Source: Candidatus Eiseniibacteriota bacterium
GTDB taxonomy: Bacteria > Joyebacterota > Joyebacteria > Joyebacterales > Joyebacteraceae
Length of the DNA: 64,000 nt
NCBI GenBank assembly: GCA_030609365.1
Contig: JAUWCJ010000001.1
Coordinates: 1,266-65,265 of the forward strand
Direction: 5' to 3'
In this document: piece by piece, positions 38,743 to 44,835 of the stretch
Position numbering within the stretch: position 1 is the stretch's first letter
Layout: each line of letters begins with the position of its first letter
Made by a program: the position numbers and the translations under genes
The notes under the pieces: model-generated
What the model saw: only the letters and a program-made list of their open reading frames with translations
The model's database searches: none
What the model was told of the DNA's origin: nothing

Positions 38743-39405
38743 ATGAAAAGGCTAACGTTTGCAGCTGTTGTGCTGGCGTTCGCGCTCCTCGTTGTGCAGA
38801 CCGCCGCGGCCGACGATTCGTACATGATCGGCATGCAGGGAGTCGGCAGCCTGATGAAGAGTCCCGTTGTCTACAGCGGGAGCTTCATGTGGGGTCTCGT
38901 TGGTTCGTGGGAGATCACGCTCGACGACTCCATGTGGCCCGGCGAGGCAGACAGCACCGCGAGGTTCGACTACATATGGGACAACTTCTTCGCCGACCAC
39001 TACATCGACACGACGGGTGCGGAGAGCTGGACCGGTTACTTCGATGGCGCGACACTGATGGCGGCTCCGCGCTTCCGGTTTGACACCATCTCTCCGGTAG
39101 GCGCGATCGAGGGCGACATCACCTTCTCGATTCTCGTGCGCGACTGGTACGCGGACGGGATACTGTCGCAGCAGGAAAAGCATCACAACCTGAACCTGAG
39201 TGCGACGCTCAGTCTGAATCCGAGCCTCGGCGAGGGCTATTTCGAGAATATGTGCGGGCACGGTTCGGTCAGCTCGGGCAACTTCAACTTCCATAACCCA
39301 CCGCTGGACGACAACCTGCAGATAGTCGGACAGATCCAGACCTACACTTGCCCCAGCCCGGTGGAAGAGACGACCTGGGGCGCGATGAAGGCGCTGTTCA
39401 GGTAG
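38743..39405 (+). CDS. Secreted protein, paralog 1 of a tandem pair, ending in TWGAMKALFR tag
   Basis: The start at MKRLTFAAVVLAFALLVVQTAAADD (RBS AGGAAAGGAG) is preferred to the ORF start at 38554. It shares SPVVYSGS.., GSWEITLDD..WP, YIWDN and GYFDG with the downstream paralog. The C-terminus is EETTWGAMKALFR. Confidence 0.55.
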   Translation: MKRLTFAAVVLAFALLVVQTAAADDSYMIGMQGVGSLMKSPVVYSGSFMWGLVGSWEITLDDSMWPGEADSTARFDYIWDNFFADHYIDTTGAESWTGYFDGATLMAAPRFRFDTISPVGAIEGDITFSILVRDWYADGILSQQEKHHNLNLSATLSLNPSLGEGYFENMCGHGSVSSGNFNFHNPPLDDNLQIVGQIQTYTCPSPVEETTWGAMKALFR

Positions 39406-39484
39406 GCAGGCGGCGAAACCGATACAGGTAATCGAGAGAGTGTTCGAGTAACAGCCCGAAAGGGCGAGGCCAAAGGAGAGGACA

Positions 39485-43200: not shown

Positions 43201-44835
43201 CCCACGGCTTCTCTGGCCGTCGCGGATCTGAGGAGAGACGCCGAGATGGAGATCGTCGTTCTGACGGAAGACGGCCTTCTGCACATGCTCGATTCGAACG
43301 GCGACCGGCTTCTGCCGCCCGTTCCAATACCGGGCGCGGGGTGCGCCTCCCCCTTCGTCGCCGATCTCACGGGCGACGGGCGTCTCGAGGCGTGCGTGTC
43401 GTCGTGCGAGGGGCAGGTCTTCGCACTCGAGTTCAACGGAACAGTCTTCGAGCCCGCCGTGGAGTGGCAGGGTCCCGGGGGCAATCACGCGAGAACGGGG
43501 ATTCAGGTTCAGCCCTTCGCGGGCAGCATACAAGAAGGCGCAACGCTGTTCGGAAGGTACCTCATCACCGGCGACGTCACGGTCGAACAGGGCGCCACGG
43601 TGACGGTTCTCCCGAACGCGGTGCTGGAGTTTGCCAGCGACGTCTCACCAACGCTCGAGGTCTACGGCCAGCTGTCCGCCATCGGGCGTCCCGGTGCGGA
43701 GGTCGTCATGCGCTCCAGGCCGGAGCGCACACCCAGCAGCTGGGGCGGGGTCGATCTCAAGGCCGGGTCGTCCGCGACTCTCTCGTCGTGTTTCATCTCA
43801 AGCGCATCCGTGGGCGTTCGAGGGAACGAGGCCACGGTCGTCCTGGACAACTGCAGGGTGTACGAGAACGTTGTCGGAGCCCGTCTGACAGGATGCGTGC
43901 TCGACGCGACGGCAAGCGCTTTCTCGCAGTCGGACAGCCTGGGCATGTATCTGAGCGGAGGGAGCGGGACCATAACGGACTGCGTCTTCGACGGAAACGT
44001 CTCGGCAGGACTCTGGTGCAACGACTACGCGTCACACGACATCATGAGGAGTTCGTTCACGAACACGGTCGATGGCAGCGGCCTCGTGTGCTACAGGCAC
44101 TCGAACACCGCTATCGACACGTGCACCATGAGCCTGAACGCGGGGCAGGGCGCGCTGGTCCACACGTCCTCGCCGAGCTTCAACGCGTGCACGATCGCGG
44201 ACAACTCGCTGAACGGCATCCTCTGCCGCAGGCTCTCGGCCCCCACGGTCTGCTGGACCACGATCGAAGGCAACACGATCGGGGTCGTCGCGGAGTCGGG
44301 CGCATCTCCCAACCTCGGGAACGAGATCAACGAGCAGACCGGGAACAACAGCATCATGGACAACCCGACTGCCGCCGTGGCCAACTACACGGCCGGGGAA
44401 TTCCCTCTCGAGATCAGGGGCAACTGGTGGGGCGCGGCTCCGCCGGTCGGGAGGATCTTCATTGGCTACGTACGCTACTGGCCCTACCTGCTGACGGCCC
44501 CTGAATCGGGTACCGGCGGGCGCAATCTCGTTGAGCAGGAGGAGACCGTGCCGTCGGTGTTCCGGCTGGGCTACAGCTCGCCCAACCCGTTCAACCCGGT
44601 TACCTCGGTCGATTACGACATTCCCGCCGGTGGTGGCAGCATCGACATTGCCGTCTTCGACGTTGCGGGCAGACGCATCACGACGCTATACTCCGGTCAC
44701 CACGATCCGGGCACTCATAGAGTGACCTGGGACGGCCGCGACAGCCGCGGCCGCAGCGTGGCGAGCGGGATCTACTTCGTACGCCTGGACACGCGGGAGT
44801 TCAGCGCTTCCAGGAAGATGGTCCTCCTGAAGTAG
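40267..44835 (+). CDS. Giant secreted multidomain protein: peptidase C25 (gingipain-like) + FG-GAP repeats + parallel beta-helix + FlgD/T9SS-type C-terminal sorting domain
   Basis: The start at MIFRSGRRAGRSAAWMLIAVLLAGAIG is preferred; the longest ORF starts at 40216. The C25-like region is ..HFGDGHLGFVILVGDAYADDNTTVMIPTYDGYGG..DVMIGRLSVGNVNEL..VNYAGDG..SMACMTGWYDN... At least six FG-GAP-like repeats follow (GDLDNDGINEVV, DADTDGDLDVIL, GDFDLDGITDFV, ADLDNDGMLEIA, GDIDSDGVADVV, ADLTGDGRLEAC). Beta-helix turns include an NWWGAAP motif. The C-terminus NPFNPVTSVDYDIP..IDIAVFDVAGRRITTLYSG..THRVTWDGRDSRGRSVASGIYFVRLDT..KMVLLK matches the Por-secretion-tail/FlgD-like CTD pattern. Confidence 0.8.
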   Translation: MIFRSGRRAGRSAAWMLIAVLLAGAIGSTLFTAAAQAERRAPAPTTIALTSADTHQAGVANARQLLSCLAQRDDDSDGISRRLVALPDCNGAIVEAVVLSGLRLSQDEAAELAWVQDIARIREQTVAVVAIDSDAVRSEQARLGLPDGIEIVVAPEGARGPVSKNTGPFTGVCESAILNYDASGNQAPRWAPPSSAAKRRGGVTYCYSVEDCASAGIDLLVVVADELHYSPVLQAFANHHSSYLGLNIGVVGTSALAELAPEALRGFIQDVYETQSAAHFGDGHLGFVILVGDAYADDNTTVMIPTYDGYGGTEVASDHYYACVSGDDDFEDVMIGRLSVGNVNELVAIVGKCANYMPMPSGEPWTESTLLVAGLFYTIKDDYVTLFDEYEELMPDGWPIDRIYRHDYANDHLCSLDVVEAFNEGHLIVNYAGDGWISSWYRVMDTTDIPLMDNGDRLPIVLSMACMTGWYDNTTEIDPNGSYDCFAEQIVNTSGRGAIACLAAPRASDGGMFRTLTKSIYRAVFTENSVFLGETVALAKLLHLQDGGSVDYPRHFNLFGDPALIYRWDTAPTDAPELVVRPHEVVTAPELPAIGDNLTVEMTVRNTSTLMATDVLLRVTDVSAAGSYSQDIFIPSISDWSSETVTAVIPALAGGWHMLDVTVDPNGTIDEIDEDNNTVTLDIYAYPHVVGFPADAGPDVFGPCIARLNGTETHILLMEGDAVVRALDSSGHTVWVTDPATAPANYGPEIAPAVGDLDNDGINEVVATRRMGLSAFDSEGQVLWDLITDDPVGSPVLADADTDGDLDVILATKMFFGGGSAIIAVDENGTLIWSYSLPSGDPTSATPAVGDFDLDGITDFVFGTLGGKVGAASCSQTPPVELWPAVQLGAHAIDVLGLADLDNDGMLEIAAIGGSVYALNTEDGTESWTVALDTTAVALAIGDIDSDGVADVVTGTAAGTIYALKNGVEIWTSPLSSKPTASLAVADLRRDAEMEIVVLTEDGLLHMLDSNGDRLLPPVPIPGAGCASPFVADLTGDGRLEACVSSCEGQVFALEFNGTVFEPAVEWQGPGGNHARTGIQVQPFAGSIQEGATLFGRYLITGDVTVEQGATVTVLPNAVLEFASDVSPTLEVYGQLSAIGRPGAEVVMRSRPERTPSSWGGVDLKAGSSATLSSCFISSASVGVRGNEATVVLDNCRVYENVVGARLTGCVLDATASAFSQSDSLGMYLSGGSGTITDCVFDGNVSAGLWCNDYASHDIMRSSFTNTVDGSGLVCYRHSNTAIDTCTMSLNAGQGALVHTSSPSFNACTIADNSLNGILCRRLSAPTVCWTTIEGNTIGVVAESGASPNLGNEINEQTGNNSIMDNPTAAVANYTAGEFPLEIRGNWWGAAPPVGRIFIGYVRYWPYLLTAPESGTGGRNLVEQEETVPSVFRLGYSSPNPFNPVTSVDYDIPAGGGSIDIAVFDVAGRRITTLYSGHHDPGTHRVTWDGRDSRGRSVASGIYFVRLDTREFSASRKMVLLK

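Follow-up and report, generated by a model that had tools for sequence, protein, structure and literature searches.

What are two small secreted proteins and a giant multidomain protein doing side by side in a stretch of bacterial DNA that is otherwise given over to housekeeping genes? The question is raised by a 64,000-nucleotide (nt) piece of contig JAUWCJ010000001.1 from a Candidatus Eiseniibacteriota genome (GenBank assembly GCA_030609365.1; hereafter the window). Three co-directional open reading frames (ORFs), denoted A, B and the giant, follow one another at positions 38743-44835. The rest of the window encodes, among others, PtsI, an HdrA-like protein, FtsH, ClpB, TilS and PFK, and the housekeeping character that an earlier reading of the letters alone (the sequence-only reading) gave to the neighbourhood is borne out. 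That reading had also taken the three genes for a possible surface-protease cassette and for what looked like an accessory island. Our analysis points to a different answer, which we judge somewhat likelier to hold than to fail: A, B and the giant would be a core surface operon of Eisenbacteria, in which a non-proteolytic scaffold of the type IX secretion system (T9SS) kind is joined by two ligand-binding barrels with a common C-terminal tail.

38743-39405, plus strand: paralog A, secreted, 220 amino acids (aa), predicted AOC/dirigent-like beta-barrel; tail at aa 203-220 (nt 39349-39402)
39485-40132, plus strand: paralog B, secreted, 215 aa, predicted beta-barrel; tail at aa 198-215 (nt 40076-40129)
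40216-44835, plus strand: the giant, 1539 aa, T9SS-type cargo by its Pfam and NCBIfam domains; translation may in fact begin with the ATG at 40267

The set of compared loci (L-numbers) consists of contigs with B orthologs plus loci fetched by the DNA pattern of the tail described below. Homologs of B form 82 clusters with 43-93% identity; all are environmental, and the named ones belong to Candidatus Eisenbacteria. Contigs with B orthologs (57-67% identity) keep the gene order of the window, namely an uncharacterized repeat protein of 627-666 aa, a HEAT-repeat protein, A, B, the giant, pfk, clpB (on the minus strand) and tilS; in some loci a TPR/PMT_2 glycosyltransferase gene lies on the opposite strand between the HEAT gene and A. 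The order A-B-giant-pfk-clpB-tilS is found in L001-L004 and A-B-giant also in L005, L009, L021 and L067, and L115, which is cut upstream of B, shows B and then the giant. Over all related loci recovered, the identity of the B orthologs spans 57-93%. Giant orthologs of 1503-1548 aa lie directly 3' of B in all loci, including each of the listed tail-pattern loci with A or B (L009, L021, L067 and L115). Orthologs of A cluster with A and orthologs of B with B, so the duplication is older than these lineages, and A and B are by this grouping of their sequences ancient paralogs.

The promoter and the Shine-Dalgarno sequence of the three genes are conserved as well, and a hairpin lies between B and the giant.

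38475-38503, plus strand: sigma70-like promoter, TTGACC-17 nt-TAGACT, from a promoter scan and a five-locus upstream alignment
38504-38742, plus strand: 5' untranslated leader of ~240 nt, with the Shine-Dalgarno sequence AAGGAG at 38728-38733
40181-40212, plus strand: intercistronic hairpin between B and the giant, 14 bp, GC-rich, lacking a U-tract, from folding of the spacer

Across five orthologous upstream regions the TTGAC element and the -10-like hexamer are invariant or nearly so, with flanks that cannot be aligned, and the Shine-Dalgarno block just 5' of the ATG at 38743 (GGAAAGGAG) is invariant in a leader that is otherwise poorly conserved. An Rfam scan of positions 36000-46000 at E≤1 gave no match, hence no known riboswitch or leader RNA. 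The 560 nt upstream of A (38183-38742), formerly described as an AT-richer leader, are indeed AT-richer (GC 0.559 versus 0.639 for the window), but they are a divergent intergenic region that separates the minus-strand TPR/PMT_2 gene from A rather than a simple leader. The spacers measure 79 nt between A and B and 83 nt between B and the giant, no terminator-like site was detected in either, and together with the conserved promoter this fits a single predicted A-B-giant operon. The pfk gene starts 21 nt past the stop codon of the giant, and transcription from the promoter at 38475 possibly reads on into it. The 83-nt B-giant spacer has a minimum free energy of -39 kcal/mol (z=-4.06; 0 of 200 shuffles equally stable), and its hairpin might make read-through rarer or lend stability to the message upstream. 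A GC-rich hairpin is also present between B and the giant in L003. Since gene order, promoter and Shine-Dalgarno sequence are conserved across related loci, A-B-giant is, as far as these comparisons reach, a conserved core locus of Candidatus Eisenbacteria genomes. The accessory island of the sequence-only reading gives way at this point: the comparison with related genomes shows the whole neighbourhood to be syntenic in L001-L005, a conservation that the same reading had named as half of what would speak against it.

A and B share 35% identity over 195 residues (E=1e-22), and each starts with a Sec-type signal peptide. The blocks SPVV[YF][SG]G, GSW[ES]IT..D..WP, YIW[DN] and GYFD and the C-terminal tails (CPSPVEETTWGAMKALFR in A and CTTPVEDATWGAIKALYQ in B), all of which had been cited for a pair of tandem secreted paralogs, are present in both. 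Neither protein matched a Pfam or NCBIfam family, even at E≤1 or E≤10. The AlphaFold2 (AF2) model of B, built from 46 sequences with a pLDDT of 86.5, begins with a signal helix. An antiparallel barrel of eight strands follows, with an inserted helix at aa 69-84, and then a disordered linker that leads to the tail, which is modelled as a short helix of low confidence (pLDDT about 50). The predicted barrel can be superimposed on members of the AOC-barrel-like and dirigent families; structure prediction, which had been proposed as a check on the paralogs, thus assigns them an AOC/dirigent-like fold.

The A/B family is small, with 56 representatives among 1.84 billion proteins in a profile search, and two of the 56 are fusions (P0142, 2903 aa; P0150, 1919 aa). 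In both, an A-like barrel forms the N-terminus and a multi-beta-helix giant part the C-terminus; P0150, encoded as a single gene on its contig, ends in a T9SS C-terminal domain (CTD), and P0142 stops inside a beta-helix repeat. A is 41% identical to the N-terminus of P0150 (E=6e-35), and the alignment ends exactly at the Cys that opens the tail, so that the junction of the fusion coincides with the tail boundary. Four homologs of B lack a tail; the two of these with readable contigs (P0055 and P0077) lie upstream of tailed beta-helix proteins of 471-527 aa. Conserved adjacency and these Rosetta-stone fusions argue for a physical partnership of the barrels with surface proteins that, like the giant, contain a beta-helix, and the fusions provide a rare handle on the function of an orphan family.

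The giant itself carries a signal peptide and five recognizable parts.

40924-41958, plus strand: Peptidase_C25, gingipain fold, aa 237-581 (Pfam E=1.6e-54, 186 bits against a cut-off of 23)
41992-42306, plus strand: CARDB, immunoglobulin (Ig)-like, aa 593-697 (Pfam E=3.5e-09; structural match to 3idu CARDB)
42373-43455, plus strand: FG-GAP/PQQ-type beta-propeller, about aa 720-1080 (FG-GAP_3 6e-20, PQQ_2 1.3e-11)
43750-44400, plus strand: right-handed beta-helix (Beta_helix/NosD), aa 1179-1395 (Pfam 4.2e-12 and 5.5e-05)
44581-44832, plus strand: T9SS type-A CTD (FlgD_ig/Por_Secre_tail), ending ...GIYFVRL...RKMVLLK

Pfam and NCBIfam thus confirm the combination of C25 domain, FG-GAP propeller, beta-helix and FlgD/Por-secretion-tail CTD that had been read from the translation. 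In the CTD, FlgD_ig covers aa 1464-1524 (34.5 bits, cut-off 27) and Por_Secre_tail TIGR04183 covers aa 1456-1536 of 1539 (23.9 bits, cut-off 23); the domain is 37% identical to the CTD of P0150. The motif NWWG was likewise correctly recognized as common to the giant (aa 1403, past the beta-helix) and a tailed beta-helix protein encoded at 27641-28798 (aa 329). With signal peptides and C-terminal sorting-type signals on all three products, the view of A-B-giant as a secreted surface-protein cassette holds up, the surface being their probable destination.

The C25 domain belongs to its family by a PF01364 match above the gathering score and by its fold: the AF2 model of aa 60-720 (pLDDT 84.7) is a gingipain fold, with RgpB and Kgp as top Foldseek matches (E about 1e-22; 2.6e-22 for 1cvr). 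Alignment with RgpB (1cvr) places the catalytic Cys244 (DVACVNG) at Cys483 (LSMACMTG, nt 41662-41664), which is retained, as is the S1-pocket Asp in the SDH motif (Asp335). The catalytic His211 (NYTGHG) is replaced by Asp451 (NYAGDG, nt 41566-41568). This position is invariant in four full-length giant orthologs, and G-D-G is found in all seven giant orthologs aligned, down to 38% identity (P0093) and including the L021 cassette, versus G-H-[GA] in 17 of 17 more distant C25 proteins, among them RgpB and the PorU-like and second-cassette proteins described below. To our knowledge, clan CD peptidases require this His and none works without it. Since the His211 equivalent is Asp in all orthologs, the C25 domain of the giant is, judged from these alignments, most likely a pseudo-peptidase that keeps a cleft. 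A relocated catalytic His at the SDH motif was considered and rejected, the same His being present in P0095, which keeps G-H-G, and so not specific to the His-less group.

The surface protease of the sequence-only reading therefore loses its catalytic His. An active gingipain-like enzyme, for which A and B would be substrates, pro-domains or accessory factors, would agree with the strong C25 match and the predicted fold, with the retained Cys and S1-pocket Asp, and with the second-cassette C25 protein, which has both His and Cys; but an Asp for the catalytic His in every ortholog across a 38-93% identity range, and a His in all other C25 homologs checked, make this explanation very unlikely. 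The three genes are currently annotated as 'hypothetical' or 'C25 family cysteine peptidase', and with the catalytic His lost, the second label probably misleads. Separately, a frameshifted or fragmented giant-like C25+CTD gene from an Effluviviaceae metagenome-assembled genome (MAG; L039:1-3720) reads Y-H-G-Q-G at the catalytic position, so that the His may have been lost in a second lineage too.

The tails of A and B are 18 residues long and read C-x-x-P-V-E-x-x-[ST]-W-G-x-[IM]-K-A-L-[YF]-x-COOH. The window contains three ORFs with the ending ...[ST]WGA[IM]KAL[YF][RQ], the third being the beta-helix protein with the NWWG motif.

27641-28798, plus strand: third tailed protein, NosD-like beta-helix (NosD 1e-08), ending ...CDPTPAELSSWGAIKALYR

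Its true start is probably Met33 at 27737, and an ortholog is present in L094. A gene for a 2-thiouracil desulfurase/DUF1722 protein (28795-29784) starts 4 nt inside its stop region, and this overlap suggests translational coupling of a tailed beta-helix surface protein with a cytoplasmic enzyme.

We scanned the DNA pattern W-G-x-I-K-A-L-Y-x-stop against 185,579 species genomes and obtained at least 119 loci with at least 158 tailed ORFs of 120-630 aa. The loci listed come nearly all from MAGs of Eisenbacteria, Krumholzibacteriota, Latescibacterota, Fermentibacteria, Coatesbacteria and Effluviviaceae; the tail-bearing lineages are reported to have a common root (PMC11323493). The tails follow the consensus C(-9)-x-[TVS]-P-V-E-x-x-[ST]-W-G-x-I-K-A-L-Y-R-COOH. 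In the 153 non-redundant tails among the matches listed, residues outside the search pattern are conserved (P 55%, V 60%, E 53%, [ST] at -1 92%, R at +8 76%), and 146 of the 153 proteins end exactly one residue past the aromatic residue. Among the matches listed, the strict motif stands at the terminus in 133 cases and inside a protein in one, which is a chance match, a statistic that is partly built in because the starting DNA pattern demanded a stop codon. A simple heuristic finds a signal peptide in 107 of the 120 full-length tail carriers listed, and for most of the others the annotated start seems to be wrong. Many kinds of passenger occur: beta-helix/NosD, NHL, Chlam_PMP, LTD, MAM, Cleaved_Adhesin, CHRD and redoxin domains as well as choice-of-anchor J and W (Haft), together with relatives of PEP-CTERM, rhombosortase-dependent and myxosortase-dependent proteins.

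Tail and T9SS CTD exclude each other. At least 61 CTD-bearing ORFs occur in the loci of related MAGs, and among the 158 tailed and 61 CTD-bearing ORFs listed none carries both; homologous beta-helix passengers with either the one or the other form 28 pairs (E down to 1e-32). At the DNA level every synonymous codon is used in the tail, Arg is encoded in all six ways, each of the three stop codons occurs, and the 30 nt downstream are unconserved. Since synonymous sites and downstream DNA vary freely, selection acts on the tail peptide, and a DNA element such as a terminator or repeat was rejected on these grounds. An outer-membrane-protein beta-signal was also discarded, given the penultimate position of the aromatic residue, soluble-type passengers (beta-helix, NHL, MAM) and the low-confidence linker between the barrel of B and its tail. 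No Pfam or NCBIfam model covers the tail, even when isolated tails are searched at E≤1 or E≤10, and literature searches for tail strings (e.g. IKALYR, WGAIKALY) returned irrelevant matches alone. Being extreme C-terminal, borne by unrelated proteins with signal peptides and swapped with the T9SS CTD, the tail has the behaviour of a modular signal for C-terminal sorting or anchoring, one apparently uncatalogued.

Two other observations concern tailed proteins. The motif C-G-[LV]-[IV]-G-A-x-x-x-x-C stands directly before the tail in many beta-helix proteins (L023, L034, L039, L072, L084, L092, L125, L127) and also closes each beta-helix module of P0142 and P0150. A tailed family of ~190-210 aa, recognizable by the N-terminus MK..L..A.PAFAG.NP...YVTFD, forms tandem arrays with as many as four members (L014:96-3402, L041, L047, L098, L113, L117, L125:546-1115); it is found near the PorU-like gene in L113, L106 and L038.

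The distribution of the tail also bears on whether the three genes belong together at all. They could be secreted-protein genes that are co-located around one promoter region without a functional link, the tail serving for structure, oligomerisation or degradation instead of sorting, as the low-confidence helix of the AF2 model and the tail-less homologs of B would allow. We regard this as quite unlikely: the gene order is kept over deep divergence, barrel and giant part have been fused in two independent cases, and the tail, interchangeable with the T9SS CTD, is attached to unrelated folds of signal-peptide proteins, always as their last residues and past a variable linker.

Clustering of the neighbours of tailed genes in the loci listed gave, as the commonest untailed family, a protein of ~1150 aa with Propeptide_C25, Peptidase_C25 (213 bits) and a FlgD_ig CTD, in which both catalytic residues are kept (G-H-A and G-C). 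It lies directly downstream of two tandem tailed paralogs of 430-530 aa, whose tails read ...WGRIKAVYRR and ...WGSIKAFYR. This second cassette is present in L013, L048, L051, L081 and L124 (e.g. L124:2400-7999) among the matches listed, and since L013 and L009 come from the same MAG (CAZEXP01), both cassettes coexist in one genome. An arrangement of two tailed paralogs followed by a C25+CTD gene is thus found twice, with unrelated passengers. These neighbourhoods hint at a link between tails and C25-family proteins, a lead whose weight depends on the background density of C25 genes.

Such a link would be expected if C25+CTD proteins were the surface receptors or processing enzymes of the WGxIKALYR tail, that is, sortase-like or cohesin-like partners. 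The degenerate C25 cleft of the giant would then bind the tails of A and B uncleaved, and the His-containing C25 protein of the second cassette would cleave or transfer its own. Besides the recurrent arrangement (the first in the window and the A-B-giant loci named above, with B and giant alone in L115) and its double occurrence in CAZEXP01, this proposal can call on a C25 gene in about 17 of the 119 tail-selected 8-kb blocks listed, on the T9SS sortase PorU as the best NCBIfam match of all these C25 domains, and on the fusions, in which a covalently attached barrel dispenses with the tail. Yet genes for secreted proteins cluster anyway, few C25 partners would have to serve about 150 tailed proteins, no giant ortholog was seen in the tail-using Latescibacterota and Krumholzibacteriota by a search of limited sensitivity, and the tail has no fixed last residue (R, Q, E, N). 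We consider the proposal unlikely. The same doubt attaches to its wider form, in which the tail would be an uncatalogued, transmembrane-less alternative to the T9SS CTD in Eisenbacteria, Latescibacterota, Krumholzibacteriota and Fermentibacteria, served by CTD-anchored C25 partners whose genes adjoin those of tailed proteins, with the giant as a catalytically dead 'tail receptor' by which A and B would be kept at the surface.

The resemblance to PorU requires a closer look at the secretion machinery. The best NCBIfam match of the giant's C25 domain is PorU NF033707, with 102.9 bits against a cut-off of 420 and profile positions 365-731 of 1095; as only the catalytic core is matched and the His is missing, the giant is not PorU. 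Related Eisenbacteria MAGs encode a PorU-like protein (L113:2394-6245, L106:2555-6403, L038:1666-5451) that matches NF033707 over profile positions 5-742 with 273 bits, below the cut-off of 420, and has G-H-G; it is likely the true PorU-type sortase of these phyla. No porV or other T9SS gene was found beside it in L113 and L106, where the neighbours are UshA-like and GlcD/GlpC-like metabolic genes. The check for T9SS core genes that had been recommended was run on the window, and none of the core families was detected among the ten large ORFs scanned with NCBIfam. We found no literature on Eisenbacteria with type IX secretion or on secretion in these phyla.

The reading of A-B-giant as a non-proteolytic surface scaffold with tailed barrels has to be weighed against a number of points, which count against it. 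We infer, rather than observe, the surface location, the association of A and B with the giant, the role of the tail and the ligand. The fusions tie the barrel to beta-helix proteins generally and not specifically to this giant, whose beta-helix has no more than a weak similarity to the one in P0150 (E about 1e-6). Of the tail statistics, the P-V-E residues, [ST] at -1, R at +8 and the secondary tails alone are independent of the search pattern. Asp451 and the retained Cys483 could support some chemistry. The TIGR04183 score of the CTD is marginal, no T9SS core gene turned up in the scanned part of the window, and the PorU-like match of the relatives falls below its cut-off with no porV adjacent.

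With these points in mind, we propose that the giant would be exported to the cell surface by Sec- and T9SS-type secretion and serve there, without proteolytic activity, as a scaffold or for binding. A and B would be taken to the envelope via their tails and may join the giant as small subunits that bind a ligand, particularly at its beta-helix part. The tail would be a modular C-terminal signal for sorting or anchoring, in general use among Eisenbacteria and their sister phyla. These bacteria are uncultured and widespread in soils and sediments, and what is known of their cell surface comes from annotation alone. Recognition of the tail would add to secretome predictions an exported class that Pfam and NCBIfam models miss, comprising beta-helix or lyase-like, NHL, MAM and adhesin-like proteins. 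It raises the questions of whether this part of the FCB group possesses, beside T9SS, a second C-terminal route of export or anchoring, and whether C25-family proteins, active or degenerate, serve it.

Two further ORFs of the window deserve mention. Within 33082-36110, the repeat protein upstream of the HEAT gene (666 aa) has a signal peptide and about a dozen G-[GN]-D-x-Y repeats and matches no Pfam or NCBIfam family; its gene overlaps the start of the HEAT-repeat gene by 4 nt, and the pair is kept upstream of the cassette in L001, L003 and L004 (627-666 aa). An 897-aa ORF at 54949-57642 has a third-position GC content of 0.83 and no NCBIfam match at E≤1e-5.

How does the cassette compare with known systems? 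The giant shares with the gingipains RgpB and Kgp (MEROPS C25) a catalytic-domain fold followed by an Ig-like domain (1cvr, 6i9a, 4rbm) and a T9SS CTD, but has Asp in place of the catalytic His, and a propeller and a beta-helix replace the haemagglutinin/adhesin domains. Like the gingipain-adhesin complexes of Porphyromonas gingivalis, it is a surface protein by prediction and possibly works with separate binding modules; here, however, these are encoded by separate genes and carry a different C-terminal signal. With PorU, the T9SS C-terminal signal peptidase/sortase, it has in common that it is a C25 protein carrying its own CTD, but its immediate neighbours are pfk, clpB and tilS in place of porV or the T9SS core. 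Type-A cargo of T9SS (TIGR04183, PF18962, FlgD_ig) is matched by the canonical G-I-Y-F...K-M-V-L-L-K motifs and the signal peptide of the giant, whereas A, B and ~150 other proteins have a foldless tail of ~18 aa instead of an Ig-like CTD of ~80 aa.

The barrels of A and B are related in predicted fold to AOC-barrel-like, dirigent, DUF3224, PodA and Diels-Alderase barrels, at 12-16% identity and outside their Pfam families; B adds the helix at aa 69-84, conserved Cys residues, a secretion signal and the tail. The tail, finally, resembles the PEP-CTERM/exosortase, GlyGly-CTERM/rhombosortase, MYXO-CTERM and LPXTG signals in being a short, family-independent signature at the C-terminus of Sec-exported proteins, with several carriers per genome. 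It differs from these tripartite signals in having no basic cluster, no dedicated sorting enzyme assigned to it and no transmembrane helix, the hydrophobic segment being absent because the protein ends one residue past the aromatic residue. Taken together, the cassette combines components of known kinds, namely T9SS cargo, a degenerate protease and C-terminal sorting signals, with a tail that is itself apparently new to the catalogues.

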